Source: Amoebophrya sp. A120
Taxonomy: Eukaryota; Protista; Dinoflagellata
Length of the DNA: 64,000 nt
Assembly (NCBI GenBank): GCA_905178155.1
Contig: CAJINV010000014.1
Coordinates: forward strand, 2,015,888-2,079,887
Direction of reading: 5' to 3'
Shown here: in pieces, positions 1-21,078 of the stretch
Layout of the letters: every line of letters starts with the position of its first letter
Position numbering within the stretch: the stretch's first letter is position 1
Position numbers and translations under genes: made by a program
Notes under the pieces: generated by a model
Databases searched by the model: none
What the model was told of the DNA's origin: nothing
The model's input: the letters and a program-made list of their open reading frames with translations, nothing else

Positions 1-3000
1 AGAGAAGTCCACTCCCTTGCTCAGCCTTGGTCGCTTCCGCCTTCATTTTTCGCTGTTCCTTGTACTGTTTTACGAGTTCCATCCGCTTGTCCTTCGGTAT
101 CTGAGTGACCCAATACTTTTCGAGTTCCTCTTTTCGTTTCTCCACCTCGTCGGTGGCAAGTTGACAGAATTTGTCGTTCTCCAACTCGTATGAACTGCAA
201 AAGTATCGTACTCGTACAAATGCATATACAAATTTATTTCTCAGCATCATCATCATCATCATCATCATCATCATTGAGAAATAAAATTTGTAATGCGGAT
301 TTACCTTAATAAGACAAAGATTTGTAATGTAAGACTTGCATTATATACGAATACGATACTTTTGCACAGGATAACTCGCGTCCGTTTTCGAAAGAGCAGA
401 CCTCTGCCCGCTTGTCGAGCCTCTCTTGCAAAGGAGCGACTCCTATCAAATGCAAAAATGTCTGGGTCTGGAAGAGTTGGAACCTGTGATGCAAACTCTG
501 GAACACGCAAAAACTTTTGTTGCGTGAGCGCCAAAAGCTGTCCATTTCTTGGTCCGCAAGTAGGAAGTTTCTGATGCGGGACAGGCATCATGAGGCGTGC
601 TCAAAACCTGTGATGCTTTTGCCTGCATCAGACGCCATTTGCGTGATCCGAAATATGCATGACAAATCTCGTAATCTTCCAGACCCAGACATTTTTGCAT
701 TTGATAACTCCTGACTCCGGTGCTCCCGGGTCGGCCTGTAGCCACTCTTCTGGCGGCCTCAAAGCCTCCGCTTCCAACGCGTCCATTTTCGCGCTACCAT
801 CCTCGGCGTTTTCAGAATTTATGCATTGCAATTATCATGTAGTTGTTACATGGGTGGTCTACAACTTTTAGAAGTCTATGTTGACATTCGCATTTTTGCA
901 ATAGAGTGGCCCGCCCTTGTTGTAAGTACGGTAGAACATCACCAGCATCAGAAGTTTCGCGGGCCGCCTATTCTTGCTGATTCATACCTGAAGGAGCGCG
1001 TGTATAATGACAAAGAAGTGCCATCAACCTCCGATATTAAAAGAATTCTTGATGGCCATGCATCAATTATCGCATCCATGCGTGACAGCTCTAGGTCTTG
1101 TTGTCCTTCAAATCTTGTCGCGTCACGAATTGTATTGTATCCAGACCCGGACGACAACTACATGTGTGCAATGCATAGCGTTGGGATCCTCGCCATTCAG
1201 GTGCTTCACGTCTTTCAGCGCTTTCTCCTCCCACTTCTCCATGATTTGTTGCGTCTCCAGCGCTATCCTGTGCAAAAGTATCGCACTCGTATATCATGCA
1301 GTCACGAATTACAAATCTTTCTCTTAAACTTAAGTTAAATCAGCATTACAAATTCTATCTCTCATGCTGAGGAAATTTCAATTTGTAATGCATTTATACG
1401 AGTACGACAATTTTGCAATTCATAAGCGCGACCGGGTCCATCACGGAATCTTGGGCGTAATAGGTCGACAGCAGCATGGGCAGTGCCTCCTTGGATTTTT
1501 CCTTGACCTGCTCTAACAGGTCGTCCTCCTGATCTCTTTCCCACCCCGTATCGTTAGAAAAAATCGGCCCTCCCCATATCGACAAGGCACACCTCAGAAA
1601 ATTTGTCATGGTGATTTGTAGCCACAAATCGCATCTGTGATGCAAGAAAGCAACGCCACAGGCTCCGCCCAATGGTGCAGGCGGTTTGTAATGCTGTTGG
1701 GCCTGCTACGGCATAGACGTTCCTCATGCTAAGTGCCTAGGCCAAAACCTCTCGACTCCGGCACGATATGGGCCTGCAGTCCTCTACTGCAAGACAAATC
1801 TGACTTGTGGACGCAAATCCGGCATCACAAATTTCGTTTCGATGTGGGGAGGGGGGATTTTTCCTTGTGATACCCCGCTTGCCAGAACCACGAGGCCCGG
1901 GTTTCCTCGGCGTCGATCGAGGCCAGCAGCTGCCGTTCCGAGGCCATCGCAATCTCCCCGGCACTATGAACTGCAAAAGTATCGTACTCGTATAAATGCA
2001 TTACAAATTTTCTCAGCATGAGAAATAAAATTTGTAATGCTGATTTGCCTTGACAAAGAAATTTGTAATGCAAGACCTGCATTTATACGAGTACGATACT
2101 TTTGCACAGCATAGGCACTTTGTCCCCGCCACTTCAGCAGCTGTCCAGTCAAGCGCGTGAGCGGGGACGTCATTGCGTTATGCTCCATGGTGAACTTCTT
2201 CCAGTCTTTATCACAGGAAAAAAAGTGCTAACGTTATACGGTTCTCCTAGGTTGCAAAAAAGCATGACAGATTTTGCCTAGGATGCATGCTACGCATGAC
2301 AAATTCTGGCACGTTTGGGGATGCATTTCTGCATCATAAATTCCGTTTTTAACGTTGTACACTTTTTCCTGTGATAGTCTTCCACCAGGACCCCGTCCTC
2401 GTCGATCAGCAGCTCCCCTCGTTCGTTGAGCCGCACGCGCGTGCCAATCTCCATTTCCTCCCCGTATCCAGGAAAAAACACCCATCCCCAGCCAATTTTT
2501 TGTGCAAAACATGCATAAGCTCCTGCAGGTTTTTTTTTTTTATGCAAAAAATGAATCATGGGGAAGATGGGTTTTTTTTCCTGGATACCCCGACGTACTG
2601 CCACATGCTTGTTTCGAAAGGCCCCCACCACACCTTTTGCCAGTTGTCATCGCTCTGTCAAATGTAAAAAAAGTGTCTGGGTCTCCTGGAAGAATGCAAC
2701 TTGTGATGCTGCATTTGGATTTCGAAAACAATCTGTATTGCGTGAGCGGCAAAGAGAATGCGATTTTTGCTACGCGGGGAGGGCATCTGTCATGCGGAAT
2801 AGGCATCAAGATGCCCTTAAAACGTCTGTGATGCTAGGGCATGCATATGCAGGCATCATGGGTCATACAAATTATGCATCACAAGTCTCAGAATCTTCCA
2901 GACCCAGACATTTTTGCACTTGATACGCTCTCCAGGGTGGCAATGTCCACCTTCGACAGGAGCCCCGGGCGTCTCCCGACCTTCCCTTCCTCGTCTATGG

Positions 3001-6000
3001 CGTTCTCAAATGTTAACAGATTCGCAGCTGTTACGTGATTTGTCACGCAATAAAACTCTCAGCAGTATCTACATTTTCAAGCTGCTTCGCATGACAAACT
3101 TCCAAAGAGGTAGACAGCATCTAAATTATCTGTGCCAGACTAACCTGCACTTAATGCGAAAGGCGCAAAAATCTTCCGCCGTGCTCTTGCACTTTTGCCA
3201 TTTTTGCATACTTATATACAAATTCATGTAACTACAGTTGAGGATGTAACGCTTGAGAACGCCATATCGTCCAGCTTCTCCTGCAACCGTGTGAAGTCGC
3301 TCGCCACCTTGTAGTGGTAGCCGGAGTAGTCCTCGTACCCCTCCACGCCGTGGCTCGCCATCTTATCGTCGAGGAGCTTCCCCTATCAAGTGCAAAAGTG
3401 TCTGGGTCTGGAAGAATGCAAGTTTGTCATGCTTGTCTCGCATGACTCTTAAATTTGTCATGCACATTACCCAAGACCCCCAGTTTTCTGTCATGCAGAA
3501 ACGCAGTTCGTCATGCAGAATAGGCAACATCAAGAAGCTCAGAAACTTGTCATGCTGAGACAGCACTTGCGGCCTCCTCATGATACGCCACCCAGCGTCA
3601 CAAGTTTCAAGACCCAGACTGCCATTTTTGCATTTGATATCCCCACTTGCTTGTAGTGCGCAATCTGCCGCTCCTGTTGTCGCAGCTTCAGCATTTCCTC
3701 CTCGGACAGGTTGCGACGTCGGTCGAAAGCCACTTGGTCAGCATCGCGCAGGTCGAGGGAAATCCGCTTGGCGCTGCCCCGGCTGATCAGCTTTTTGCTC
3801 GTCTTTTTTGGGTGCATATGGGGGCGTCAGGATCGAAATCGACAAAGTTGAAATAGTTTGTCAAGCACAAGAAAACGCAAGGCACGAACTGACTGTCTTG
3901 CAGGAATGCCAACAGACGAGGCCAACTGTAAGAGCCTGTTTGGGGTTTCAGATTCGATAGAGCTGCTGAAGTAGGATGACAAAAGCAGCTCTCTGTGCCT
4001 AAAGAGCATGACAAATTCGATTTCAATGCTGCCAAAATTCGTCACGCGCCACTTGAAAACTGAATTCCAATTGGTATCGATTTTATGATGGATTACAAAT
4101 CACATTTCAACTTTGTCAATTTCGAAGATCCTGACAGTTCCATAGTGCAGTACTTCCTTGTATTTCTTGCTGTACATCTTGTTTCCGAACCAGAACCAGG
4201 TATCCAGGAAAAAACACTCATCCCTATCGAATTTGTCATGCAAAACATGCATAAAATCCACTATTTGCCATGCAGAAAATGGATGGGGATGGGTGTTTTT
4301 TTCAGGATACCAAGCGCCACCGCCCACGAGCACGGACGCTGCGAGTTGCCGGGGGTCGTGGTAAAGCTGTGTCTGCTGCTCACCGATGGCCTGGACCGAG
4401 TCTCGCGCTGCTTCCATGTGCCCGAAGATTGTATCTTCCGGGTTCTCTCCTGCTTATGCATTGGAAATATGTCTGGGTCTGGAGGAATGCAAGCTTCTCA
4501 TGCTCGTCGTCACACATGATTATGATTCATCTCAAAAAATCTGCAATACACGTCGAGCAGGAAAGCAAAAGCCTCTTGCCTGTCATGCAAAAATGCAGTT
4601 AAATTATGCGAAAAAAAAAGCGAAGCACATTCATAGACGGAGCTCAAAAAATTGGCATGCGTAGCTCCGTTTTTTTCAGTGCGCTCACCAGTAATCCACT
4701 AGCATCGGAACAAGAAATTTCCAGACCCAGACATGATATTTCTCGCACTGCATACTGCTCCATGTCCATCTCCCGGGGATCCGATGGTGTGTTCGGCGTC
4801 GTGGACGTTCTATGAACTGCAAAAGTATCGCACTCGTATAAATGCATTACAAATTTCCCCAGCATGAGAAATTATGCGGATTTACCTGAAGAAAAAAATT
4901 TGTAATGCAAGACCAAGACTTGCATTTATACGAGTACGACACTTTTGCACAGGATACGTTCTGATAATCGTTGACGACCCTCTCGACAGCGTCATGCTTT
5001 TCATTCAACTTTTCGAAGTTGTCGTGGTCGATGCGTATCTTGTTGTCGTCGTGATGTCCCCCATTATTACCTCCTCCTGCGCTTTCGTCGGCGTCGGCGA
5101 CATGGTCTTTAATGTCATCCAGCAAGTCTTTATACTTGTTCGCCTGCGCGTCGAGATCGTCTTGCGACGGATTGTATCAAATGCAAAAATGTCTGGATCT
5201 GGATGAAGGTTGGAACTTGTGATGCTACAAAATCTGAATCATGCAAAAAGACAAATCTGTGTTGCAAGATTAGCAAATGCTGCCCAATTTTGATCAAGTT
5301 GCGAGGCAGTTTCTACTCATGCAGGATAGGCATGATAGTGATCTCACAGATGAATCTGTCATGCTAGGTCCTCCATGACAGATGAGATCGTATGCGTCAT
5401 GGAAAATAACCTGGATGACATAGTCTAGCAGCGTCTTTTGCTGTTCGTGCAATACAGATTTTTGTACCATCCAGATGCAGCATCACAAGTTGCATCCTTC
5501 CAGACCCAGACATTTTTGCAATGCATAGATTGGGATGTTGGTTCTCATCCACGGCGTCTTGGATTTCCGTCAACTGTGTCTGCCATCCTACTACCCGCTC
5601 GTGATCATCACTGTCACCTGCTGTCTGCCTCGCTAAGCCGTCTAAGATGTCCTTCATCGCATCGTGTCTGTCCGTCAAATCGTCGTGCGCGTCTATGGTG
5701 TGTTCCCTCTTAACTTCCGTGAGCACGTTATGGAGGCGCCAGGATTAAAATCGTCAAAGTTGAAATAGTTTGCGACGCATAAAATGCAACCCGCAAAGTG
5801 CCTGTCTTGCAGAGTAGGCAAGGGAGGCAGATCGCAAGCCTGTTGAGGGGTAGAAACTGAGCTGCTAAAGTAGCATGACAAAAGGCGGCTTCCTTACCCA
5901 AACAGCATTACAAACGGGATTTCGACTCTACCAAAATTTGTCACGCGCCACTTGAAAACTAGGCACCAACTGGCGCCCGTTTTAATTCTCCATTGCAAAT

Positions 6001-9000
6001 TATTTCAACTTTGTCGACTTCAATCCTGACACTCCCATACGCGTCAGAGACCAATCTTTCGTACTCGTTCATCTTTGCGTCGTACTTGTCAACGTTTCGC
6101 ACTGTCGCGATCGCGGTGTCAAGTTCTTCTTTTCGCGCCAGCAGAGCCCGTTTGTCGTCTCCGTCCGTGACTTCATTGATCAGCGTATCCACAGTAAATT
6201 TCCCGCACACGACGACGTACAATAAATGCTGTCACTGCATGACATCGTCATCATATTCATCGCCATGTAGTGGACACCCGCACCCAGCGCCACAGGTCAA
6301 GGATCCCCTCCCCGGGGGGTGGGCGAGGAAGCACTTTCGGCGACCTCATCATACAAAACTTGACTCCGATTCTAGTTTAGCATGACAGGCGTTAGTACAC
6401 TGCAAATTGGTCGTGAAATTTGTGATGCATCTTGTGCATGTACGGGAAATTTGTACTTATTGCATACAGCGTCTTCATGCTCGTCTGCATGTCGCGCAGG
6501 TTGTGTTCCTTTTCTTCATCGGCTTGGATCTTGGCGCCCTAGAGGTGTAGGTATTCAGTGCGTCGTGTTGAATAGATCGTAAAGTAGACAGACATCAAAG
6601 GCTTGTTCGTGTGTGCTGTGTAGTAAGGCATAAGTAGGCAAATGACAAGGTCAACAGTTGCAAGTAGCCGGACCAGCGGCCAGAACTACTTATCATGGCG
6701 GCGCTGTTGAGGAGCATGAGCCCCTGTTGCATCATCGAACTCAATGCGTGAAGGACTCGGTTCTTCTATCGGTATTTTTTTTACTTGATAAAAGTGTCAA
6801 ACAAGTAAAACGCTGAATACATAGAAATGGGGGGCGCGACCCCACCAGAGGACCACTGTGCTACGCTCGATTCCTTCGGGCATACTTTGTGCGGAGGGCG
6901 AGGGATGTTACAGCGATCAGGACAATAAATTTCAATTTGTTAACATGGACAGAACCAGTGTGAAACGATGGAGTTTTTTCATCGACCGAACTCGCTTTCT
7001 TTACGACAACACGGCCAAACTCGTACGGGCTCCTTAACATCTGGCACTAGAATACGAATTATACTTAGAAATCGAAATCCATGATCAAAATAAAAAAAAT
7101 ACAATTTCGTCCATGTTGCCCTCGCGCATGTCCTCCTCCATTTCTTTCAGAGTTCCAAGGTGCTGCCTGTCCATGTGTTCCACACTGCTCTATGCATTGC
7201 AAATGTGTAGTCTGGGTCTTGAACAAGAGTTCCATTTCCAACTTGTCATGGTGGTGCTAAGTCTGGATCATGCATAAATCTGCGTTGTATGATTACCAAA
7301 GGTTGTCCACTTTATTTGAACAAGTCAAGTCGAGAGGGACGAGTTTATCGTGCAGGAAAGCCATCATGAGACAGACTTCGCAGAATCTGTCATGCTACTT
7401 CCTGCATTTATTGAGACCTCATGCCGCGTCATGGAACACCTGCATGACAAGTCTTGCAATCTTCAAAAAGATGACCCAGACATGTTTGCAATGCGTATGG
7501 TCCTCAACTCCGCAATTTTATCGTCCGCCGCGTCCATTCTATCCTTTTGACTGTCGATATAGTCTATCAACTGCAATTGCAAATATGTCTGGGTCTCGAA
7601 TGTCATTTGTCATGCATCTCATAAAAAACAAAAAAAGTCTGGAAAAATGCACCCAGAAGCATCACAGATAATTTCGCAAGATCTTCTTGATGCCTATTCC
7701 GCGTAGAGGGTCGCCCTTCATTTTCGCCTGGCAAGATTTATTGGGCAAGAACGTGGTTTGCCATTCATGCAACACAGATTTTTGTACCATTCAGTAGATT
7801 TGGCATGACAAGTTGCCACGTCTTTCCAAAAGAACCAGAATCAGACACATGATTTGCAATGCGTATAGCTCGTCTCCTCGTCCGTCCATGGCCGCGTCGT
7901 AGCTTCTTCGAGCGCCGCTTTTTTGATGACGATTTTTTGCATAAGCACATCCAAATAATCAGACTCACTTTGGTCGTGTTCTTTGATAGGCGCGTCCGAC
8001 CCGAGCACCTCTTTCATGTCGTCACTCGTCCGCAAACTGCCGTTGTCTGGCAGCGCCTTGATCCTCGCCAGCTCGTCGTCCCATCGGTCTTTATTTTCCT
8101 GCAACGTTTGGTCCCAGTCGTACTCCTGCGTCATGTATGGATTGTAAATATGTCTGGGTCTCCTGGAAGGTTGCAACTTGCAATGCTAATTCTGGATCAT
8201 GCAAAAATCTGTGTTGCGTGAGTGCCAAAAGCGGCCCACTTTCAACCAAGTTGGCAGGGAGTTTCTCACGCAGGATAGGCGCGATAGATATAGAACTCTC
8301 ACAGAATCTGTCATGCTATGTCCTACATATTACCAGACCTCATGGGTCATGGAAAACCTGCGTAACAAGTCTGGCATTCTTCCAGACCCAGACATTTTTG
8401 CAGTTGATATCATGATTTGCCCCCCCTGGGGGTTATATTCCAAACTATCGGGTAAATTTGGATCGTTCTCCTTCTCCAGAACGTTTGGATGGTTCTCCAG
8501 CAGTGTGGTGATGTGATTTAAAACGTCGAGTCGCTCGTGTAGCTTATCCGAGCCGTCCGAAACAAAATGTTGAAGTTCGGCGGGCATTGTAGCTTTCTGC
8601 TCATCTAGCTGTTTTTGTAAGTCATCTAGGCGCATTTTGTTGTTATCTATCTGGTCCATACAAAACCCGTAATTGAAGTCTTCTCCGTAGTCCGAATTAG
8701 TGTCTCGTTCATGGCAATACGTTGCATCATGGTTCGTGATATCATCCTGCAAATCGTGGATCTCTTTGCTGGTTTCTTGGTAACGTTCGAGGTGTTCCTT
8801 TTCCTTCTCCCAATCCTCCAGATTCTCCGCCGCAGTGTGTTCGAAGTCATAGTTTTTCAAGAGTTCGTATCAGAGTGCGCAACTGCCCCTCCCCCTCATT
8901 TGTCACGCTAAATACCCAATCCACCCTTTTCCTCTTGGCGATGTTTGCATGGCAATTTCTGGTAGCCCAAATAGCGGCACTTAGACTTACACTCCAGTGC

Positions 9001-12000
9001 AAATTTGTCGTGCACAACCACCGCTCTTGCTATATTGCTGCTCATGCCGTACAAGAAATGAGGGGGAGGGGGAGTTGTGCACTCTCATAGTTCGTCCGTA
9101 TGGGGGTGGGCCTCCAGATCCAGGTACCCGCTCTCCTCCTCGCCAAGTTCCGTCTTCAGCCACTGACCCCAATGGCCATCGTGTTCTCGTATGAGAGTGC
9201 AAATACGACCCTAACCCCCCTCAATCCCCCCCTCGTCAATTTGAAAATACAAACTTCTCTCGCGAACAATCGACATCAGCGGGTCGCCGGAAGAAGGAGG
9301 AATGAAGATAATTCTCCAGGAACAAAAGTCCACCTCCACGACGACGATCATGTAGTTGAGACTGCAGCGCCTTTCGGCGTCATATGCATATGCATGCTGC
9401 AGGAGCTCCTGCGCAATCAAAATAGTGGTGCAATCACGACTACATCTACGCGGGGAAGGAGCCGCGTTCTGCTCGTTTTTTTGTAAAATGGCAAATGACC
9501 GCCACACGACCAGCGAAGTGGTGGAGAGAGAGTTTTCCGTATTGTGCTTTCTCATACCGTCGAGATCTTGCTTGATCTTTATGGCGTACTCAGAGGGAAC
9601 AGTCTACACTGGAACAAAAATGATGCAAAAAGCGGAAATATTTTCATGTTGTGAAAAAATCATCGAAATCAACAACGAGAACAAATGCAAAGTCTACCTC
9701 GACCTCCTACAGGTCTGCATGACAAATTTTGTGAGGATCATCTGAACGACGCGGTTATTTGGACGGTCGCAGATTTGATGTCATCCTAGACTCCATGTTG
9801 GTCGCGAGACAGATTGCCAACGTTTTAGCACCATCGCAAATTGTACGTAGATGTACTTAGTTCCACTCCAGATTATGTTCCACCTGAGCACGTCGTACAG
9901 CCGTTCGTGATGCTATTCCCTGAAAATTGAAAACCCCCATGATCCAATTTGTCGTGCACAGTACCCGCCTGTGGTCCACCACATCAAAAATGATCTTTGC
10001 ACTAGTACCACATCCAATTTATTGTTGAATGCAAATCGTGGAGAAGTAGTAGTAGGATGTGTTTTTGTCATCTTCATCATGCGGTGGAAAATGGATGATG
10101 ATGGTACAACATAATTTTCAGGGAATAGATGTCCTGAATGTTGTCGAGAAGTTCCTTGTTTTTCACCGCTCCGTGTATGATGTTGCCACTCCACTCCTTC
10201 GAATCTCCGTCGGGATTACTGGGATCAATATGGTCCAGTTTGTCCAGCGCCTCCTGGATCTTGTTGATCTCCTCATTGTCCTCTTGTGCATTGCAAAAGT
10301 ATCGTATGATCGCACTCGTTCTCGTATAGATTGCATTATAAATTTTGGCAATTTTGTAAAAATTATGCTGTTTTACTATTTATAGGAAGAAGATTTGTCA
10401 TGCATATTTGCAAGAGTCAGCACGACGAGTCAAATAGGTTTTGCAATGGATACCACGTGTTCTCGCTGGTCTAGACCCACTTCCGTGTTGTGGTCCTCCA
10501 GGGCTTGGATCAGGGTGTCATTATCAAATGCAAACATGTCTGGGTCTCTAATGCTAAAAATGAACGGTAGACGCACTGCACTGCGCAGCTATACATGACA
10601 AATTTTTTGGCTGCCATGTCTTACGTATTCCGCATGGCAAGCTGCGTTTTTGCATGACAGGTAAGAGGGCTTTTTCGTGCCTATGCAACACAGATTCTCG
10701 AGTCATGCCAGACAAGCATGACAAACTTGCACTCTTCCAGACCCAGACACTTTTGCATTTGATAGGCCTTCAGGTCTTGCAAGTCCTGTTTGGTGTGCCG
10801 CAGCGCATCCATGGCATCTGGCTGCTGTTATCGAAGAAAAAAAGTTCGTCACGATCACTTATGCGCATTCTTGCAATACAAAATTGTTTGTCATGCGTAA
10901 AAATGCATCACAGCCAAACTTCATTAGGGATTTCCCTAGTGTTTCTGCAATACAAGGAAAGTTTGTGACGCTGAGAAAATTTGTAATGCAAAGCCTGCAA
11001 GTTAGTGACTGTGACAAACTTTTTTCTCTCCATAACTGTTCCAAAGTATGCAGTACAATTTTTTTCCCGCTCATGTACAAAATGCATCACAAACTTCGCG
11101 GCCAACTTAGAGCATATTTTTTTATTACCACGCATTTGTCATGCTGAATAAGCTCCTACGCTAGTTTTGTCATGCGGAGCCAGCATTTGTACGCGTAGTA
11201 CGGGAATAGACTTACTGTGGATACAAAGTCAGGCCCTCCGCCTCACCGTGAAATAATAGCGGATTGGGCGCGTGGGTACCGTCTCCGTTCAAGTCCCAAA
11301 AGTGCGAACCCGGGTCGTGCACCAACCAGTCGTGCCAGTCTTCCTGATATCAAATGCAAATGTGTCTGGACGTCTGGAAACTTGTGATGCTGGCCGGCGA
11401 GACATGGAGACGCGACAAATGACGGGTCTTCAGCATGACAAGTTTCTGAGGTGCAAGGTGTTGTCTGACAGCATTCAGCATGACAAACTGCGTTTTTGAA
11501 TGACAAACAATTGGAACCTTTGGGCAATATCCTGCATGACAGATTCGGGAGTCATCATGCTAGCAGAGCAACACAAACTTGCACTTTACTTCCAGACCCA
11601 GACATATTTGCCATGCATAGCTGGTCCCACCCGTGTATGACGGCGTTGTTGGTCAAGTCCCGCTATCCTGTGCAAAAGTATCGCACTCGTATTGCAATCA
11701 TGATGCATTACAGATTTTTTTCTTCAGGGAAATCCGCATTACAAATTTTTTATTCCTCATGCTGAGGAAATCATTTGTCATGCATTTATACGAGTATGAA
11801 ACTTTTGCAGTTCATACTCCCAGCGCGTTATCAACTTCGAAGGTGTCCACGACATAGTTCACAAGCCGGTGTGTCATATGTAAAAACGTCCTCACATCCC
11901 CATAGCCAAGTTGGGAACCTAGCAAGACAAGTCAAGTCCACAAGTTTTGGGAGCCACGCATGAGAAGTTGCAGTCCGTAGTGTAGTGCATGTTTTTAGCA

Positions 12001-15000
12001 AGGACAACCGCATTTCAAATCCACCTGCTTATCCTGTTTACAGCATTACAAATTCCAAAACGCGGATGGAAATGCCTCCCATGGAGATGCGCATTACAAA
12101 TTTTCCTGATGAATCGCAAATCTGCATGACAACTATGGAGGGGTGGGGACGTTTTTACTCAGGATACCCTGCCCCATGTAGTCAAAGGGCTGGGTGTATC
12201 CTGTGCAAAAGTATCGTACTCGTACTAATTGCTTTTATGCATTACAAATCTTTTTCGAAAGACAATTCCGCATTACAAATTTAATTTGTAATGCTGAGGT
12301 AATTTGTATTGCAATTTATACTAGTACGATGCTTTTGCAGTTGATAGGGTGACCGTGTCCACCGTCCATTCCACAGTGTTCAGGCCGTAATTTGCTAGGT
12401 CCATCTGCGTATCCTGTGCAAAAGTAATATCGCACTCATACTAGTACAACTACTGATCATCGGAAGACTGCATGACAAATCTTTACCTGGATCTGCGTGA
12501 CAAACTGCTACTGCAACTCTCTTCTTAAGAAAATCCGTCATGCGAATCATACTACTGCGATATTAATACTTTTGCAATGCATACTGTGCGTCGTGTGTGT
12601 CCTCGTCTTTCACGAAATTGACGTACCCGAAGTCTCCGTCCCCAAAGTCAAAATCCCAGTCCTTGTCCCACTGGATGTCAAAGCCGAGTGCGCTTTCAAT
12701 AAGATTTGCCTATCCAGTGTAAATATGCCTGAGTCCTCTGAAACAATTCTGTCGTGACACTGACAGCTCAGCCTGATTGTGATTGACAACTAAATTTATA
12801 TTTATTGCAGCCCAGCATGATCCATCGATCATGAGAGCGAGGTTTTCCAACGCTCTTTCTGAAGACCACACGAGCAAGGATTACAAAATTTAAATTCCGC
12901 TTTTACAATTCAAAAACAGCGTCGCGTGTAGTATCAATCGCCACTCAGCATGTGCATGACGGATGATAGTACACGCGCTACTTCATTTGTTGATGTTGGC
13001 CACACAAGACCGATTCTACAGGGAAAAAAAACAAAGCGCGAAGCAAACATGGCAAGTGCTACTTCCCCGAACCCAGAGATTATATTCACGCTGGATATTG
13101 TATCCAGGAAAAAACATCACCCATCCCCATCCACTTTGTCATGCAAAACATGCACAAGCTGCGGTGTTTGTCATCCAAAAAATGGCTGGGGATGGGTGTT
13201 ATTTTTTCCTGGATATATTGCTGGTGCTTCGACGATGTCATATCAAACAAAAAAGTTGTGTTAACGTTCACGGTTTTCACAGAATGAAGTCACGCGTGAC
13301 AGATCTAGCCTAATCTGCATGCTATACATGACAAATGAATTTGGGCACGTTTTGTGGTCGTGCGTCATTGCATCACAAATTCCGCTAAGGTTAACACTTT
13401 TTCTGTGATATGTCATCGGCGGTGTCCACCAAGAAGTCGCGGCCCTGGGGAACGAGGTGTGATGCCTCGCCCCATGCACCGCCCAAATCGTGCTGTACAA
13501 AAAGTTCGTTTCCTACGTGTGGAAGCGCCAGGCTCGAAATCGACGAAAGTGAGACAACTTACAACGCATGCAGCCGCTACATACCGGTTGATCATGGGCG
13601 ATCACCTTGAACTTCAGCTTCTAAGCGTCGCAAAGCAATATTTTGGAAGCTCCTGAAAGAATCCGACTCACCGCAGTTGTGTTGGCGGCAAACGCGAATG
13701 CTTTTCTAGCGTTGGACCAGAAGTGTCCCTATTGCTACCTCTTGCGGATAGATGTGAAACAGGTGTGCAAACTTCTAAAACTGCATCGATCTGGCCGCGT
13801 TTTGGCACCGCGGTCCGCCTCCTCGGCGCTCTTTTTTTCTAGTCTTTGGTCTCGGGGTGCCGCGCTCGGTTTTTTTTAGCGGAGTCGCTCATGGCAGATT
13901 TTGCCGCAGCGCCGAAAATTATAAACATGGGGCGCCGGCCCTTTTTTCTATGAAAGCACGAGAGGCGAAGCGAGTAGGATAACCTTCTCCGCGCGCGCAG
14001 CGCGCGCGAAAATTTTGTTTCACCTCGCCCCCACTGACGCGGATTTTTTTTCTCTGGTTCCGCCCGGCGGCAGGCCGGCAGCAGCTGTGAGGCACCCGCG
14101 CGGCAGCTGTGCAACAGCCCGCGCAGCAGCCGGAATCAGGTGCGCAACAAGTGCGCAACAAGTGTGCAACAAGTGTGCAACAAGTGCGGATGGGTGTGAA
14201 ATAAGTCCGTTTTCTTTTAGAAAAAGACTTACTTCACACCTATCCGCACTTGTTGCGCACTTGTTGCGCACTTGTTGCACACTTATTGCGCACTTATTGC
14301 GCACTTATTTCACACCTCTCTCACACCTGTGTAACATTTGTCGCGAGCCTGCCCCCAACCGGCCTCACACCTGTCTCGCAGCCGTGCCGCAGGTCCCGCG
14401 CAGCGCACCCTGCGTTGGGGCCGGGCTGTTGCACGGCTGTCGCACAGCTGACCGCGAGGCCTCTCTTTTGCCGCCCGCGAAAAAGTTTGGGGGCCGGGGG
14501 CCTGGCTCTTGACCCGGGCCCGGTGAACCGGTCGGCCCGCGCTCGCCCTAGGCAACCCGAACGCGCGACGGCCCGCGACCACGGGTCTAGCCGACTACTT
14601 CTCGCCGCGTTGTGCATTGTGAAAACGCGACGGCCCATGCGGAACGGGCCACCCCTTTCGTCATGGAAGCTCCTGAAAGAATCCGACTCACCGCAGTTGT
14701 GTTGGCGGCAAACGCGATTGCTTTTCAAGTGCTTGTTTGCGGTAGTTCCTTCCACTTGCACTTCTAAACCTCGGCAAGCTAAGGCTTACTACAACAGCAG
14801 GCCTCGCTTGCCTACTCGCCAATACAGGAGGTTTGTGCTATTAAGCACGACTTTGATTTATTTTATGGGATGCAAAGCTCTTTCAATTTTGACGATTTCA
14901 AACCTGACGCTTCCATAAAACGGATACGGTACCCTGTGCAAACATTTCCACGGGTTTTGCAAGTTGCTCACCAACGTCAAGGACGTTCTCAAGGTTGTTC

Positions 15001-18000
15001 ACCACTGCGTCTTTTATCCAAGAAAAAAACGTTGTTAGTGTAAATTTGTGATGCGCAACCTGCAATATGATTGCGTCTGTCATGCTTGGCATGCATCGTA
15101 GGGCCCATTAAAAGGCGTTTTCACGTACTACCTGCGCATGACAGGTTTTTGCTGTCATGCCAGGCAAATTTGTAATGCTGTTGCTCCAAAAAAGTTACAC
15201 CTACAATGTTTTTTTCTTGGATATCTTTCGCACCAAATGTAGTAACCCACCCCATCCCGAACAAGGTATCTCCGATGTCGCCCGGCATGTCGCCTATATT
15301 GTCAATAAAGCCCTGCTTCGCTTTAGTTCCCTGCCTCCCGGAGGTTCCCTGCCTCGCTGTTTCCTGCCTCGCTGTTTCCTGCCTCGCTGTTTCCTGCCTC
15401 GCTGTTTCCTGCGTCGCTGTTTCCTGCCTCGCTACCTCCGTGTGCGTTCCAGTGGACGTCTCGAGGAAGGTATCCTGTGCAAAAGTACAGCGCTCGTATA
15501 TAAAAATGCACTACAAATTTTCTCAGCATGAGAAATAAAATTTGTAATGCGGATTTACCTAACGAAAAAGATTTGTATGTAATGAATGCCTGCAATTACT
15601 ACGAGTACGATACTTTTGCAGTTCATAGAAGGATGACGCGGGCGCGGCTGCTTCCTCCTGGGTGGCTGCTTCCTCCTGAGCTTGTTGCGTCTCCTTCCTG
15701 CGTATCAAATGTAAAAATGTCTGGGTCTGGAAGAATGCAACTTGTCATGCTAAATCTAAATGATGCAAAAATCTGTGTTGCGTAAGTGCAAAAAGCTGTC
15801 CGCTTTTGACCAAGTCGAGAGGGAGTTTCTCATGCAGGAAAGGCATGATAGAGACCTCCTCAAAAAATCTGTCATGGTGGGTCTCGCATTCCAGACCTCA
15901 TGGGTCATGGAAAACCTGCATCACAAATCTTGCATTCTTCCAGACCCAGACATTTTTACATTTGATACTGCGCATGGCTGCCGTACCGCGAAACCGGTAT
16001 CTCGGCTGGGCTGCAGCGGCATCAGGTAGTGCTAGATCATGATCGTCACCTCTTCCCGGAAGAACGACCTCCGACGCCGTCTCCCTATAATTTTCTTGAT
16101 GTTCCCCCTCCGTTTCACTGCTGCTCGCAATCTTGCCCTTCATCAAATAAACATCGCCGAAAGGAGGAGCATGGGGATCCTCGAGCGCCGGTACTACTTC
16201 TCCTTCATGGTCGCTCGGGGGTTCATCTTGCTTCTCTTCCCTATTCGTTGCAAGAACATCATCGGACGGAACAGCGTGGTCTTCACTGTGGCTCCTCTGT
16301 TGTAGTGCAGCCAACCTCGCACTCCCACGCAGGTTATTTTTCCGATGAATCTTCTTCGTCGTTGCCGCGGTTGCCGTTGCGCCACCAGCAGAAACTACTC
16401 CGTCTGACGACCACGAAGACCACGGAAAAAGAGCGGAAGACCCTACTTCTCGCCAATTATGGTTGCGCTAGGTCGTTGGGAATCGGCAAGATGGAAATGG
16501 CATGCAAGGATGTAAAAGATTGAAGATACCGGCCGGGCTACAATTTCTCGAAGCGGCCGCGCACGACAGATTTAGGGTTCGTCTTTATCCAACTTGCATT
16601 TGCCATGCTGCTTGGACGAGCAAAGCAGACGACTTCTGTCGTGCACTTCTATCACTAACACCAAATTATAACAGGCTGCAATCGACCTCAAATGCCATCA
16701 CTGCACGACAGGCTGCACTCTGTGCCTCACATTTCATGCATCGCCAATCTTTTCCTCTTTGTCGATATCCACCAATCTGACGCTGCCATACCGAGCTTTA
16801 TTGTCGTAGTGCTCGTCCTCGTCCGGTGCATACAGATTTTTGATGTGCAGATTATTGTACAAGGAGCTCCTCCTGGAGGTTTTAGCGCCAGCCGCGCGAG
16901 GCAAGCCGCTCGTGGTACTCGTACTGAAGGGTCGCGCAGATCTATCACAGGAAAAAACTGCTTCACTGCAAGGATTTTATACGCAACTTTTGCACGACCA
17001 TCACTAGTTTGTGCAAAACTTGCAATACTTCGGCTCTTCTACTTGTGCCGCTGTGTTGTTGCATATAATTATGCATCCTCTGCATGACTAAGCACATCAA
17101 GTCTACGGTGAAAGAGTTTTTTCCCTACGATACGATGCTAGAAGTTGCACCGCGTCGATATCTTCGCTGTATCTGTTTACTGAATAATTCAGATCTCTTT
17201 GCCCGGCGTGGGGGGTCTCCTCACTATCGTGCCCGTCACTTCGCATCATCACGGCGGCTCGCCTCCGCGCCCGCCGCGCTAGCACCTCCCGCAGCGCGTA
17301 CGCTTGTCGCAGCTTCCGCTTCAGCCGCCGGATCTTCAGCGCCCGTCGAAGCACGAACATGGTTATGAGAACCAAGTACAAAGCATCCAAGGAAAAAACT
17401 GTCTCAGAAGTCTCAAATCTTTGCAGACTCACTATTAAGGCAACACGAATTTCAGTTTCGGTTTAGCATGACACACAAATAAACTTGTGAAGTGTCAGTA
17501 GACTACACATGCCTGCGATAAAAGCATACCTGGCAGACACCTTTCATCTTGAATGTGCAGAAGCATGACAAAAAACTGAAAGTTAGTGTCTTAAGCAGCG
17601 TTTGCATTACAAGTTGGGACTGAGACATTTTTCTTTCGTGATACAAAGTGACGATCACTTTCCACCAGGAGAAGCGCGAGGAGGATGTTGACCGCCGTGA
17701 TTGCAGCTTCATCTGCTTCTTATCATCTTCTTCACAAAAAGTACCTCGCCTCTGCAGGTGCGACGCTCCTGCTCCTTCTGCTGGAAAAGAGCGTTCATCT
17801 GCTCCCGTGGAGGTGCTCGGTCCGGTACTAGACAGCGCTGGTGCTGTTGTGGCGTTGTAGGTAGTTGCACCGTCCTCCACTGCGCTGATCGCGCTGGTCT
17901 CACCACCTAGCGCATCACCGCGGCTGTTTGCTCGGTCCGCATCAGCATCCCATGGATGTTGTAGCTCGAGTTGCAGCGGCGCAGTCAGCGACTCCTCATT

Positions 18001-19590
18001 GTTTGTGCTTCCTGCTCGAAAATGGGCGGGTCTCTTGTCGCACATCAGTTCCTTCCACCAGCGAAAAGACAACAAACGTCTACGACGCGATGAAAGAAGA
18101 GTCCTCGTCGAAAAAGTAGTTGTAGTTTCTGCAGCCCGAGGATCGTCATCCTTGCTGCGAACAAAGGAACTGCGCATCATCATCAGGTGTCGCCGTAAAC
18201 AACTTGGCAAGCAGCAGCTTGTTGCGCGGCTTGCGGAAGCAGGTGCAACTTCTTCGGGCGGGACTTCATCTACACGGGGACGAGGCGACGTCACAGCACT
18301 CTTGGAGGAGCTCTTCTTTTTTTTCTTTTTCTTCTGTGAGTTACTGTGAGCTGCCTTCGTTTTTGTTACTCGAGTTACGGTGTCCGGCGGAATCATTGGT
18401 TCTCGATTGTACAACTGCAGCTCCCCCTGGCGCGGCTGGTCTTGCGTAGCAGAGGACTGGTAGCGGTCGACCTGGTGCTGCACCGCTGGACCTCCGCTTC
18501 TACTTGGATTTGGATTTGCAGCAGGGTGCTGTACTAGATCTGCAGCAGTACTATGGCGCTCTCAAGCGTTAGAATCAATGAAATGATCCCTGTAGAAGTT
18601 AGATGAAGATTTTGTATATGGTTCAAGAGTCGCAGACGCAAAAGCCTGGACCACGACCACTTTATCTTTAAATTCAATATATACGCTCGTTGCATTTATA
18701 CAAATGTGGTGGACGTAGAATCTTCAAGAAAAAATCGCACCTTGCATTTATGCAAAAAATCAAAAAAATACATAGCGATCGCGCAACGGCAATACATAGC
18801 GATCAGTCAGCACCAGTGTGTTAACGCTTGTGATGAGAACGCCATACACAGTACACGTCGAAGCGGAAACTTTTCCTCCGGCCACTTGGACATCATTTTT
18901 CGTCTCGTGACGGTACTCATCATGTTGTTGCAAGTGGATCGGAACCCTCTCCAAACTTGTACTGGATGTGCTGGAGTTGTTGTTCCTGTTCCTATTTTGA
19001 TTTTGTTGCACACTAACACTAGCCATGCCTGTCGCCCCTTGCTCCTTGTCAACGGTGGTGGTCTCGCGTGCAGCATCTCCTCCTGAACGAGCGGCCGAAA
19101 CGCCTTTGTTGCGATGATCTGCATGATCTGATGTGCAAACTACGGACTGCAGTGCGTCGTGTCGAGGCACGATCGTCGAGGAGATGTAGTTGGGCACCTC
19201 CTCCGACCTCCTGAAATTACCATGTTCTGCGCCCGGTCGTGCTGACAGGGCCGCAGTGGAGGCTGTCGCGCTCCTCGCGCTCGTCATCCTCTCTTCAGCT
19301 AGTGCAGCTGTTCGAGGACGTACTAGATCTCCATCTAATTCGGGCTCGGCGATCACAGCTGTCGCCTGAGCGGGGGCTAGCTGAATCGTGCTGCTGTTTG
19401 ATGTGCTCTTTCTTGTGGTCATTTCTGACTCGACGACAAGAACTTGATCCGTCATAATTCCTTTTCTCCCGCTTACAATCTTCTTGTGCACGTCCGATTC
19501 CATGATGGGTAGTCGTTCTCGCTCCCACTTCGGAAGATGTGCAGAGTTTCTGGCTTCTGCGACGTCCACCACTTCGCGAGGAAAGGCTGA
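1..19590 (-). CDS. Large multi-exon hypothetical protein (>2,200 aa in window; low-complexity N-terminal part, one predicted TM helix, long acidic/coiled-coil region); 46 introns; 3' end lies outside the window, 5' end uncertain
   Basis: Removing each TIR element plus one 5-bp repeat gives one stop-free frame by manual translation, e.g. ...SWWKVIVTL|YLVLITMFVLRRALK...PESGV|APLQERLDK...NGRE|LENDKFCQ.... No known domain recognised. Confidence 0.85.
189..373. mobile_element. Introner, family A (TATnnnnTGCAAAAGTATCGTACTCGTA)
   Basis: TIR; TSD ACTCG/ACTCG; internal (CAT)n expansion; removal restores frame. Confidence 0.95.
444..706. mobile_element. Introner, family B (TATCAAATGCAAAAATGTCTGGGTCTGGAAG)
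   Basis: About 30-bp perfect TIR; TSD ACTCC/ACTCC; frame restored. Confidence 0.95.
820..1177. mobile_element. Introner, decayed B-like
   Basis: TATGCATTGCA...TGCAATGCATA; repeat GCGTT at 806-810 and 1178-1182 (9-nt offset); frame restored. Confidence 0.8.
1264..1424. mobile_element. Introner, family A (opposite orientation)
   Basis: TATCCTGTGCAAAAG...TTTTGCAATTCATA; TSD AGCGC. Confidence 0.93.
1549..1872. mobile_element. Introner, family C
   Basis: Imperfect TIR (CCCTCCCCATATCGA/TCGATGTGGGGAGGG); TSD CCCCG. Confidence 0.88.
1965..2113. mobile_element. Introner, family A
   Basis: TIR; TSD GGCAC. Confidence 0.95.
2209..2376. mobile_element. Introner, family D (TATCACAGGAAAAAGTG..AACGTT)
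   Basis: TIR; TSD GTCTT. Confidence 0.93.
2465..2587. mobile_element. Introner, family E (TATCCAGGAAAAAACACCCATCCCC)
   Basis: TIR; TSD CCCCG. Confidence 0.93.
2656..2925. mobile_element. Introner, family B
   Basis: TGTCAAATG...CACTTGATA; TSD CGCTC. Confidence 0.92.
2996..3266. mobile_element. Introner, family F (TATGGCGTTCTCAA)
   Basis: 14-bp perfect TIR; TSD TCGTC. Confidence 0.92.
3384..3639. mobile_element. Introner, family B
   Basis: TIR; TSD TCCCC. Confidence 0.92.
3817..4144. mobile_element. Introner, family G (TATGG..GCGTCAGGATCGAAATCGACAAAGTTGAAAT)
   Basis: TIR; TSD GTGCA. Confidence 0.92.
4201..4309. mobile_element. Introner, family E
   Basis: TIR; TSD CCAGG/CCAAG. Confidence 0.9.
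4455..4754. mobile_element. Introner, family B
   Basis: TIR core ATGTCTGGGTCTGGA; TSD CTGCT. Confidence 0.9.
4811..4956. mobile_element. Introner, family A
   Basis: TIR; TSD CGTTC. Confidence 0.95.
5175..5527. mobile_element. Introner, family B
   Basis: TIR; TSD GATTG. Confidence 0.93.
5729..6039. mobile_element. Introner, family G
   Basis: TIR; TSD CACGT/CGCGT; interior similar to 3817-4144. Confidence 0.9.
6186..6466. mobile_element. Introner, family H (TATCCACAGTAAATTTCCCG)
   Basis: Imperfect TIR; TSD CAGCG; frame restored. Confidence 0.85.
6541..7117 (-). other. Non-canonical intron without recognisable TIR
   Basis: Flanked by direct repeat GCCCT; removal joins ...DMREG|AKIQAD... in frame. 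Confidence 0.7.
7191..7497. mobile_element. Introner, family B (diverged)
   Basis: TIR; TSD TGCTC/TGGTC. Confidence 0.88.
7565..7865. mobile_element. Introner, family B (diverged)
   Basis: Imperfect TIR; TSD TAGTC/TAGCT; frame restored. Confidence 0.82.
8136..8409. mobile_element. Introner, family B
   Basis: TIR; TSD TCATG. Confidence 0.92.
8868..9089. mobile_element. Introner, family I (TATGAGAGTGCACAACTCCCCCTCCCCCTC)
   Basis: TIR; TSD GTTCG. Confidence 0.93.
9190..9556. mobile_element. Introner, I-like (decayed)
   Basis: TATGAGAG...TTCTCATA; TSD decayed but removal of element plus 5 nt keeps frame. Confidence 0.78.
9580..9897. mobile_element. Introner, F-like (decayed)
   Basis: TATGGCGTACTCAG / CTGAGCACGTCGTA; no TSD match left, frame kept with +5 nt. 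Confidence 0.7.
9914..10127. mobile_element. Introner, family E2 (TATTCCCTGAAAATT)
   Basis: 15-bp perfect TIR; TSD GATGC/GATGT. Confidence 0.9.
10285..10452. mobile_element. Introner, A-like (decayed)
   Basis: TGTGCATTGCAAAA...TTTTGCAATGGATA; TSD CCTCT/CCACG; frame kept. Confidence 0.8.
10522..10764. mobile_element. Introner, family B
   Basis: TIR; TSD GTCAT/GGCCT; frame kept. Confidence 0.88.
10829..11034. mobile_element. Introner, family J
   Basis: AGAAAAAAAGTTCGTCAC / GTGACAAACTTTTTTCT; TSD GCTGT/ACTGT. Confidence 0.85.
11047..11223. mobile_element. Introner, family H
   Basis: End TTACTGTGGATA is the reverse complement of the 6186 start; TSD CAAAG. Confidence 0.85.
11348..11619. mobile_element. 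Introner, family B
   Basis: TIR; TSD CCTGA/GCTGG; frame kept. Confidence 0.87.
11664..11816. mobile_element. Introner, family A (opposite orientation)
   Basis: TIR; TSD CCCGC/CTCCC; frame kept. Confidence 0.88.
11872..12166. mobile_element. Introner, family K
   Basis: GTAAAAACGTCC / GGACGTTTTTAC; TSD CGGTG/CCCTG; frame kept. Confidence 0.82.
12197..12346. mobile_element. Introner, family A (opposite orientation)
   Basis: TIR; TSD GGGTG. Confidence 0.93.
12410..12583. mobile_element. Introner, A-like
   Basis: TIR; TSD CTGCG/CTGTG. Confidence 0.88.
12711..13097. mobile_element. Introner (TATCCAG...CTGGATA) whose right TSD is interrupted by a second element
   Basis: TIR; left TSD TTGCC, right TSD reconstructs to TTGCT after removing 13101-13215. 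Confidence 0.82.
13101..13215. mobile_element. Introner, family E, inserted across the end of the previous element
   Basis: TIR; TSD TATTG at 13096-13100 and 13216-13220. Confidence 0.92.
13241..13410. mobile_element. Introner, family D
   Basis: TIR; TSD TGTCA. Confidence 0.9.
13644..14729. repeat. About 66-bp direct repeat pair (13644-13709, 14664-14729) bracketing the insert
   Basis: TGGAAGCTCCTGAAAGAATCCGACTCACCGCAGTTGTGTTGGCGGCAAACGCGA... twice, 1020 bp apart, 2 mismatches. Confidence 0.93.
14138..14306. repeat. Long palindrome whose arms contain 11-bp tandem repeats
   Basis: (GTGYGCAACAA)x4...GCGGATGGGTGTGAAATAAGTC / GACTTACTTCACACCTATCCGC...(TTRTTGCRCAC)x5; centre near 14217. Confidence 0.93.
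15015..15223. mobile_element. Introner, family L (TATCCAAGAAAAAAAC)
   Basis: TIR; TSD TCTTT. Confidence 0.92.
15349..15434 (-). repeat. Coding 15-bp tandem repeat, (ARQET)n
   Basis: CTGCCTCGCTGTTTC units; ARQET is the frame continuous with the flanking exons. Confidence 0.85.
15471..15627. mobile_element. Introner, family A (opposite orientation)
   Basis: TIR; TSD GAAGG. Confidence 0.94.
15703..15967. mobile_element. Introner, family B
   Basis: TIR of more than 35 bp; TSD CTGCG. Confidence 0.95.
16458..16790. mobile_element. Introner, decayed
   Basis: TATGGTTGCG / CGCTGCCATA; TSD CCAAT/CCGAG; frame kept. Confidence 0.68.
16943..17132. mobile_element. Introner, D-like
   Basis: TATCACAGGAAAAAAC / GTTTTTTCCCTACGATA; TSD AGATC/CGATG; frame kept. 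Confidence 0.78.
17384..17643. mobile_element. Introner interrupting the TM-coding segment
   Basis: Imperfect TIR (TGTCTCAG/CTGAGACA); TSD CAAAG. Confidence 0.85.
18552..18846. mobile_element. Introner, family F
   Basis: TATGGCGCTCTCA / TGAGAACGCCATA; repeat AGTAC with 3-nt offset on the right. Confidence 0.85.
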
Positions 19591-21078
19591 TATGCACTGT
19601 CTGGGCCAAAACTGCAGCGGGAGAAGCTCAGGCTCGCAAGAAGAAGTTGCACGTACAATTCCTCGTGCACAAGAAAGAGCAAGCGACGATCCCTTGGTAG
19701 TTCAAATTTTCGCGAAATAATTCCTCGTTGTTTTTGTTTTGCGGTCTCTTCGTAGATAGTACACACCGTTAGGGTAGTTGGAATGAAGAAGAAGTAGATG
19801 CTACTCAACGAACTGGTACTGAGTCGCCATAATTAGTAGTAAAGCTTTCGTGGCGACTTGAAAACGAAACTTCGCAGATATGATTTTCTAGTTCCCAATC
19901 GCAATCCCATCTTCAGCTAAAGCTGCTGCCAGATCATGCTACAGGAACGTGCTTAGTCGTATTTACTAGTACTTATTAGCAAACTCGAGTCGAGGAAATG
20001 CAGCAGAGCACGAAGATGAATATGAATTTTTCATATCGAGCACTTCTACATTTTTTCTTGTGGACAAGTGGAAATTGATGTTGATTCTGGAGCTAGACAA
20101 AGTCAAAGTCTGTCAAAGCGGACGCATACATTACTGTCTTACTTTACGTAACGAGTAGCGATTTGTCTTCCTTCGCTCGGAAGTAGCCATCGGTGGTTCT
20201 TTGTAGTCGAGTTTTCTGTTTGCTGCGACTCCGACTGCGATCCCTAGTGACACTGAGACGATGTTCCGACAGATTTGAGCAGATTTTCTTCCCTCGTTGT
20301 TTTTCATTTTCTCCCTAGCTATCTCGACTACAACGACTTCGACAGCTGGCGTGTGCAGCTTTCTCTCTACTTCTCTGTGCTTCCGCACGCGAAGCACACA
20401 TAATAGACGAAGATGATCGATCATGCACGCGAAGAGCCTGGAACGAAGCAATAAAAAGAACGACCTGCAAAATAGAACAATCATCATCCTGGTGATGATC
20501 ATCTTCCTTGCTCTATTACGAGGACGATAGGGGTGACGACAACGACGAACACTCAATCTGTCTTGAACAATCCGCACGGGAGACAATAAAGCCTGCGAGC
20601 AGCTACATCTCCCCCACGGATTGCACAAGAACTGAAGCATGCGCGATTATGTGGGTTGCCATGCACTCTGCAAAAGCTTTACCACGCTGGCTAGGATCAT
20701 CTTTAGAGCTGCAATCGTATAGGTGCATGAAAACAAGTGGTAGAGAAAAATGATGTTCCCAGGAGGACCAGAAATGTCCGAAATGATCAATGAAGAGCGA
20801 GGATCCGAAAAGTGAAGCAAAACGTGTTCTACTTCTCCACGGCAAGAAGAGGAGAGCAAAAGAAGTCTATCTTATGCTACGGCTCGTCCTTGCTTGTCCA
20901 GTTGCTGTCCAGCTGCAGCTTCTTTCTGCCTGTATCATCATCTGCATTTCGAGGACACGGACCTGATAATCCTGCTCTGGGAGAAAAACGACAACATGAA
21001 GACCTGTCAACACTTTTGTTGCAGACCTGTCAACACTTTTGTTGACCACCCTGCATGTTGATCCCCAACATAATAAAT

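Follow-up and report, generated by a model that had tools for sequence, protein, structure and literature searches.

The elements described here belong to the introners of the dinoflagellate Amoebophrya sp. A120, for which Farhat et al. 2021 (PMC7789003) reported 29,850 copies with inverted repeats (IRs) starting with TAT and with direct repeats of 3-5 nt, and of which tens occur as introns within single A120 genes according to Gozashti et al. 2025 (PMC12130899). In the former study, the splice position relative to the hairpin is given as variable or unknown (Fig. 3 legend), without a clear dinucleotide signature, and the inverted repeats are said to lie 1-5 nt from the splice sites. We analysed a stretch of 64,000 nucleotides from strain A120 (contig CAJINV010000014.1, positions 2,015,888 to 2,079,887; hereafter the window, whose own coordinates are used below), in which a minus-strand gene occupying positions 1-19590 carries 45 elements with terminal inverted repeats (TIRs) and one GT-AG intron without TIR (6539-7102). 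At 100% identity, an exon of the RLP24 gene next to it (21124-21456) matches a protein named Amoebophrya sp. A120 (84% for strain A25). The elements can thus be equated with those that Farhat et al. 2021 described as introners, a class that the original prediction had also taken as already described. They have TAT-starting inverted repeats of 8-20 nt, direct repeats in the 3-5 nt range, families and non-canonical removal, and resemble the published ones (PMC7789003, PMC12130899) also in the TAT plus A stretch of the IR, the non-GT-AG ends and the intron density. For the published introners the cut is given as variable or unknown, whereas those of this gene always show a 5-bp duplication, a fixed cut register and conserved bases at intron positions +2 (U) and -7 (A). 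That this fixed register operates at the RNA level is very probable. While the elements and their class are already known, the fixed register is new relative to the literature searched: neither it nor the conservation of U+2 and A-7 was found there, including the available text of PMC12005148 and PMC11453091, and Figs S19-S25 of Farhat et al. may show part of it.

Among other systems, class 12 of the introner-like elements of Polarella glacialis (bioRxiv 10.1101/2020.10.14.339549) shares a target-site duplication (TSD) of 5 nt and the same cut geometry; in its NNAGG form the donor consists of the last TSD base and the first base of the element, and TSD position 4 is the last base of the acceptor. 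There, however, the TSD must supply G and AG (canonical GC-AG), and one orientation and several frames are used, while here the TSD is free, both orientations occur and there is one frame. This comparison suggests that the NNAGG-requiring geometry of Polarella may be the ancestral state. The nonconventional introns of euglenids (Nomura et al. 2025, PMC12501133) likewise have non-GT-AG ends, paired termini, a cut set by spacing and a proposed origin from elements like miniature inverted-repeat transposable elements (MITEs), but they carry CAG/CTG at +4 to +6, a 3' spacer of 5-6 nt and a purine after the intron. Our introns do not follow this code (N3CDG...CH'GN5-6/R), having TAT/ATA at +2 to +4 and a spacer of 4 nt, and the exon base that follows the intron need not be a purine (G 98, A 89, C 75, T 48). 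In Fritillaria borealis (PMC13326754; review PMC11282704), transposon-derived non-GT-AG introns are also in the majority and are handled by an adapted U2 spliceosome, but the preferred ends are AG-AC and AG-AT, U1 is retained and roughly half of the termini conform to isosteric pairs, in contrast to the unconstrained first and last intron bases here. The introns of Giardia, Trichomonas and Spironucleus (PMC6679479) are similar in that branch point and 3' cut lie at a short and invariant distance and base pairing joins the intron ends; they differ in keeping AG and a full branch motif fused to the 3' splice site, where a single A, as putative branch point, is kept in our case.

The position of the cut can be read only where the two copies of the flanking repeat differ, and we express it as k, the number of bases taken from the right-hand copy on the plus strand. 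Eighteen of the 20 imperfect repeats are informative (the junction at 4201 is silent in the protein and that at 16458 lies outside the listed matches). All 18 are compatible with k=1, as against 11 with k=0, 10 with k=2, 7 with k=3, 5 with k=4 and 1 with k=5, and at three of them (9580, 13518 and 18552) k=1 is the sole possible register. In mRNA sense the intron reads N-TAT...ATA-NNNN, the cuts taking along one nucleotide ahead of the 5' TAT and four behind the 3' ATA. Predicted beforehand from the joint 18547/18848, k=1 was found at 11/11 informative junctions of the contigs from runs X6 and X7 (chance 2.6e-4 with uniform k). The mirror register k=4 is excluded by 13 junctions, and six are incompatible with the removal of an entire repeat copy (k=0 or 5). 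Moreover, the 18 junctions span several unrelated element families, and k=1 holds in the 1.4-kb copy with its nested insert as well as in copies without any remaining repeat. Element orientation is random relative to the inferred transcription in loci L001-L127 (36/39, 17/23 and 13/14), which are 127 of about 190 stretches, all from one other assembly; since the register is polar even so, the polarity follows the transcript, as would be the case for an RNA process. The reported spread of 1-5 nt would be expected from alignment ambiguity within a 5-bp repeat.

Precise removal of the elements, very probably from RNA, is seen in joined transcript-like contigs and in the database protein P0034. 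The term transcript-like rests on an automated guess that runs X5-X8 are RNA. The first contig mapping gave 16 pieces and 15 joints among the matches listed, with 21,110 and 3,088 more beyond them. Among those listed, X5 contigs join 8130/8410, 17376/17642 and 18547/18848; the X6 and X7 contigs make ten joints across 10128-15014, keeping a 7-nt exon, and have zero depth within 13644-14831. In this second mapping X8 gave no joints, and the long X5 contig was absent at the 99% identity level. Both the 7-nt exon and a nested pair of elements are handled exactly in the spliced contigs. In contrast, DNA-like X1 contigs traverse the elements unbroken and with 0 differences at 15945-19800 and 9065-10412 (among the matches listed). 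P0034 is identical to the last 1,114/1,114 residues of the spliced frame across 28 introns, and it may share underlying data with the joined contigs. Altogether 43/46 introns (42/45 TIR introns) are backed by joined contigs or P0034, and those of the elements at 15015, 15471 and 15703 by the frame only. Raw RNA reads from runs X9 (218) and X10 (4) were all partial matches and left the exons uncovered; they are uninformative. X9 reads do pile up on the TIR family of 15703-15787, with other flanks, in a run that itself lacks this gene, from which a related element seems to be transcribed in another strain or species.

The bases kept at the intron ends are few. GT-AG stands at the fixed register in 3/46 introns (2 of the 45 TIR introns and the ordinary one), as expected from the claim that most junctions lack it, and in the strand-called copies of the loci GT is found in 80/265, AG in 19/265 and GT-AG in 8/265. 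Positions +1, -2 and -1 are free, and the pattern of a GT/GC donor with an AG acceptor, typical of U2-type introns, is not followed. U at +2, on the other hand, is found in 45/45 elements here and in 251/251 coding-like copies of the loci. The latter came from an end-blind detector that ignores the terminal triplets, giving 415 copies, or 395 after de-duplication and flank limits, of which 251 are coding-like, 89 are not and 55 are intermediate and were excluded. The 251 coding-like copies have 0, 2 and 8 variants at +2, +3 and +4 and 4, 2 and 0 at -5, -6 and -7, whereas the 89 non-coding-like copies vary everywhere (3, 3 and 3; mirror positions 3, 6 and 4). With this gene included (296 copies), variants at +4 and -7 number 11 versus 0 (p=0.001; strict count 8 versus 0, p=0.008); A-7 is invariant while its partner U+4 varies, which indicates that A-7 is kept for its identity and not for pairing. 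The original prediction that removal needs no fixed splice dinucleotides is thus right for GT and AG, but it has to be amended, since the cut sits at a fixed, strand-polar register and U+2 and A-7 are kept. The ordinary donors of the window, GTAT (6539-7102) and GTAC (RLP24 intron), match N-TAT/N-TAC. In Table S4 of Farhat et al. (PMC7789003), in the part available, 9/9 predominant non-canonical sites of A120 are NT-NN, eight of them NT-AN, a set that our register would presumably yield from a mixture of both strands; 9/9 sites of strain A25, whose IR starts with TTA, are TT-NN. Selection toward GT/AG in old copies was considered and rejected, as mismatches at repeat position 5 in the loci give G upstream in 4 cases and G downstream in 4. 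Folding into a hairpin is predicted with z < -2 in 40/44 elements (12 shuffles each).

Considering these features, we lean, with little more than even confidence, towards the reading that the introners of A120 are removed from the pre-mRNA by a modified spliceosome that would measure from the terminal hairpin rather than recognise G(+1) and AG; spliceosomal catalysis as such is reasonably probable. In this scheme a TIR transposon would insert into coding DNA in either orientation, duplicating 5 bp, and its symmetric TIRs are predicted to fold into an RNA hairpin whichever way the element lies. Removal of N-TAT...ATA-NNNN, that is, of the element plus 5 nt, would then restore the coding sequence exactly, as it does at the 18 informative junctions. 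A GUA-like donor would obtain its conserved U+2 from the first T of the TIR, and A-7, the first A of the 3' ATA, may act as branch adenosine, with the 3' cut made by distance and not by AG. As a branch point A-7 is a tentative candidate, and it is rather doubtful that the spliceosome disregards the first-last pair, G(+1) and the 3' AG altogether, reading only U+2 and a TIR-supplied branch A and counting 6 nt. Farhat et al. 2021 (PMC7789003) report U2, U4, U5, U6 and 83/89 spliceosomal proteins from A120.

Several points weigh against this reading. U1 went undetected in A120 in the same report, a 2026 paper holds spliceosomal splicing to be dependent on the first-last base pair (PMC13326754), and no lariat or intermediate that would back the removal was seen. 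All 16 first-last base combinations occur here, with G-G at 26/310 (32.9 expected); A-C, at 27/310, is near expectation, and the introns show no G-G or A-C excess, although independence is rejected for the first-last table (p=0.0008) and likewise for the mirror control (p=0.007). The hairpin would hide positions +2 to +4 and -7, at a mean pairing probability of 0.65-0.72. The asymmetry between +2 and -5 is weak (0 versus 5, p=0.06; strict count 0 versus 1). The -7 pattern was noticed post hoc in loci without transcript data, where strand assignment relied on a codon model that had been trained with this gene; one -7 variant, the AT-rich L040, which is likely false, had turned up in a previous detection. 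As for the register itself, all 18 junctions are in one gene and on one strand, X5-X8 are RNA by guess only and P0034 perhaps derives from the same data. As a separate observation, C at both the first and the last intron base is scarce (8 versus 18.1 expected of 310), which is not so in the mirror control.

The main rival is a serious one, to which we assign a substantial probability that stays well short of even: the RNA register would be the same, but an Euglena-like, non-spliceosomal route with a structure-guided endonuclease and a ligase would do the cutting, and U+2 and A-7 would be bases recognised by protein. It would suit the lack of a first-last constraint and of AG, the stable terminal hairpin that is predicted, the undetected U1 and the exact handling of the 7-nt exon and the nested pair, and there is a precedent in the Euglena introns, with a motif-plus-spacer code (N3CDG...CH'GN5-6), proposed non-spliceosomal factors and circles (PMC12501133). 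Yet the kept bases match a GUA donor and a branch A at short distance, T at +2 is kept in both Amoebophrya strains, two TIR introns are GT-AG at the very same register, and the same geometry is spliceosomal in Polarella. The modified spliceosome stays our preferred reading.

The other two explanations concern the register and the level of removal. A cut that varies genome-wide, the single register being peculiar to this gene or to the building of contigs and gene models, would agree with the 1-5 nt distances and the unclear dinucleotide signature of Farhat et al., with the origin of all 18 junctions from one gene and with the fact that contigs drop rare variants; it is improbable in view of the several unrelated families covered by these junctions, of the alignment ambiguity that a 5-bp repeat brings, and of the T at +2 in 9/9 top A120 sites of Table S4. 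Excision from DNA, in the manner of internal eliminated sequences or by transposon excision in some cells, could also yield joined contigs and has in its favour the transposon anatomy, the record of X5-X8, which does not state RNA, and the 3,088 joints beyond those listed, which could include minority joined DNA. We regard it as very improbable, since the X1 contigs listed carry the elements unbroken, P0034 and the TIR-intron joins imply that the GT-AG intron was removed as well, whole-copy loss is excluded at six junctions, and 13 junctions exclude the mirror register, which a two-fold symmetric DNA cut would produce half the time. Removal from RNA at a fixed register is common to the modified spliceosome and to its main rival.

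Most of what the original prediction said of the gene holds. The elements were located by scans for inverted ends with flanking repeats and then curated, and the count agrees with the predicted 46 introns, 45 of them TIR elements, in a single gene; the intronic share of 1-19590 is 65.2% (about 65% claimed). When the element plus 5 nt is deleted each time, a stop-free minus-strand frame of 2,311 codons results (2..19701, reaching the window edge), 2,245 of them counted from the first Met at 19503, close to the roughly 2,260 obtained by hand. Deletion of the element plus 0, 1, 3, 4, 6 or 7 nt leaves fewer than 450 codons open, and the same-frame deletions of +2, +8 and +11 nt leave 1,686, 2,266 and 2,221. 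Because +8 and +11 also give long frames, the frame alone cannot fix the value of 5 nt, which is fixed by the repeat length, the contigs and P0034. The gene is not complete in this frame, which represents its 5' part: P0034 extends 1,844 residues beyond the window. The spliced frame would encode the start of an acidic protein of about 4,090 aa if Met 19503 is the start codon. A tandem 15-nt repeat at about 15340-15440 on the minus strand codes for RQETA-type units, and contigs break there: the 5' contig stops near 15384 and the 3' contig starts near 15377, both inside the repeat. The unity of the gene across it is inferred from the open frame, as no listed contig bridges it. The P0034 gene model starts at Met 10812 on the minus strand, just past the 7-nt micro-exon, whereas frame and contigs reach much further upstream; the model thus looks 5'-truncated, with up to about 1,130 N-terminal codons missing that are largely covered by transcript-like contigs. 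No Pfam family was found in the spliced protein or P0034 (31 window ORFs and P0034 scanned), there was no usable Atlas match, and the exon 8411-8860 had no match among proteins of 264-2000 aa. P0035 (E 1e-5, coiled coil) was rejected, its match being compositional.

All introns lie on the minus strand and are given below with their elements and their mRNA-sense end dinucleotides at the fixed register; informative ones, in which an imperfect duplication and its product place the cut, carry the range of compatible k. Matches to P0034 support introns 185..374 (element 189-373, TT-AG), 440..707 (444-706, TT-AG), 816..1178 (820-1177, CT-TT, k 0-1), 1260..1425 (1264-1424, TT-GC), 1545..1873 (1549-1872, GT-GG), 1961..2114 (1965-2113, CT-GC), 2205..2377 (2209-2376, CT-GA), 2461..2588 (2465-2587, GT-GG), 2652..2926 (2656-2925, GT-GC), 2992..3267 (2996-3266, AT-CG), 3380..3640 (3384-3639, AT-GG), 3813..4145 (3817-4144, CT-CA), 4197..4310 (4201-4309, GT-TG), 4451..4755 (4455-4754, GT-CA), 4807..4957 (4811-4956, GT-AC), 5171..5528 (5175-5527, CT-AT), 5725..6040 (5729-6039, GT-GT, k 0-1), 6182..6467 (6186-6466, GT-CT), 7187..7498 (7191-7497, AT-GC, k 0-2), 8864..9090 (8868-9089, CT-AA) and 9186..9557 (9190-9556, GT-AG, duplication decayed, k 1-2). 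The ordinary intron 6539..7102, whose donor GTAT resembles the N-TAT of the TIR introns, is supported by frame and P0034. Contigs and P0034 both cover 7561..7866 (7565-7865, AT-CT, k 0-3), 8132..8410 (8136-8409, AT-TG), 9576..9898 (9580-9897, GT-GA, no repeat left, unique k=1), 9910..10128 (9914-10127, CT-AT, k 0-4), which is adjoined by an 11-nt exon (9899-9909), 10281..10453 (10285-10452, GT-AG, k 0-2) and 10518..10765 (10522-10764, CT-GA, k 0-1). Contigs support 10825..11035 (10829-11034, TT-AG, k 1-5) and 11043..11224 (11047-11223, GT-TT), between which the micro-exon 11036..11042 is retained, and further 11344..11620 (11348-11619, CT-AG, k 1-4), 11660..11817 (11664-11816, GT-GG, k 0-1), 11868..12167 (11872-12166, GT-CC, k 0-1), 12193..12347 (12197-12346, CT-CC), 12406..12584 (12410-12583, GT-CA, k 0-3), 13237..13411 (13241-13410, AT-AC), the 1.4-kb intron 13514..14918 (13518-14917, TT-TA, unique k=1), 16939..17133 (16943-17132, GT-TC, k 1-4), 17380..17644 (17384-17643, GT-TT) and 18548..18847 (18552-18846, GT-AC, duplication decayed, unique k=1); at 16454..16791 (16458-16790, GT-TG) the contig piece ends at 16452 and the summed length fits. 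The three introns resting on the frame are 15011..15224 (15015-15223, AT-AG), 15467..15628 (15471-15627, CT-TT) and 15699..15968 (15703-15967, GT-CA). In the nested pair, a stwintron-like arrangement, the whole span 12707..13218 is removed (contig; k 0-4): the donor end of the outer element (12711-13097) is interrupted by the inner TIR intron 13097..13216 (13101-13215, AT-AT; contig), and the product is that expected if the inner element leaves first or both leave in one step, not if the outer one goes first. Inside the 1.4-kb intron, a GC-rich insert of about 1 kb (13644-14729) lies between 66-bp direct repeats (13644-13709 and 14664-14729); it has a 155-bp inverted repeat at 14140-14293 and is multi-copy in X1 contigs.

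The anatomy of the elements is uniform. On the plus strand they start with TAT (40), TGT (4) or CAT (1) and end with ATA (42) or GTA (3), as had been noticed before, and they are 109-387 bp long with one exception of 1,400 bp. The flanking repeats that had been described as 5 bp are of that length only (mean identity 0.82; lengths 2-4 and 6-9 give 0-2 exact and identity 0.21-0.32), but just 25/45 are exact: one mismatch is seen in 7 elements, two in 10 and 4-5 in three (9190, 9580 and 18552). With a strict detector, 22 TIR elements were found in 1-19600, whereas 100 Markov controls yielded 0.02 on average and never more than 1. Families of 12, 9, 5, 4, 3 and 2 occur among 63 window elements, with copies at most 89% identical, and the same families recur in L001-L127 in both orientations; none of these loci covers the gene studied here, so that they offer no view of empty sites. 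TIRs, a TSD of constant length, short size and ORFs without Pfam match in two long elements are as in MITEs. The elements fit non-autonomous TIR transposons, as the original prediction held, on the evidence of their TIRs, constant 5-bp duplication, families and both orientations; this anatomy is the sole basis of the assignment, as no transposase was found among the 31 window ORFs scanned, nor was a cognate one found in A120 according to Farhat et al. 2021 (PMC7789003). Identity with Ginger DNA transposons (TGTNR ends; 4-bp TSD, 5 bp in TDD-4/5; PMC2836005) was rejected, since the termini here are TAT and the TSD length fits TDD only. A CNNNG target preference in this gene (C 22, G 18 of 45) is gone in the 265 loci copies, and an orientation bias of families was rejected on the near-even counts in L001-L127. 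An internal motif, CATNACARA, is found in 34/45 elements in both orientations (63 matches in 12 kb of elements; strands 33 versus 30), with 0 in exons and none in the GT-AG intron; because it is unbiased by strand it was not assigned to splicing, and it is possibly a transposase-binding subterminal repeat. No Rfam match was found anywhere in the window.

Outside the host gene, the RLP24 gene (21124-23210, minus strand) has a GT-AG intron that carries an element of 1,127 bp (21762-22888, TAT...ATA), which has a 5-bp duplication and contains an inverted repeat in its interior; its ORFs gave no Pfam match. At least 17 more TAT...ATA elements lie in downstream minus-strand genes at 26314-57200, and the end variants at 26572, 34206 and 47004 have the same polar direction as those of the host gene. 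An element-like stretch at about 46080-46205 stands between 5-bp repeats, apparently minus one terminal triplet.

The mode of splicing of these introners has been open because their cut sites were held to be variable, and a single polar register makes it testable; such a register would also allow gene models to be corrected. If the removal is spliceosomal, the first-last intron base pair would be shown to be dispensable, and the invasion of coding DNA by transposons without a target-site requirement would be explained. Furthermore, if the proposed mechanism is true, any TAT element that duplicates 5 bp would be a perfect intron wherever and whichever way round it inserts, and a single rule would cover tens of thousands of 'variable' splice sites.

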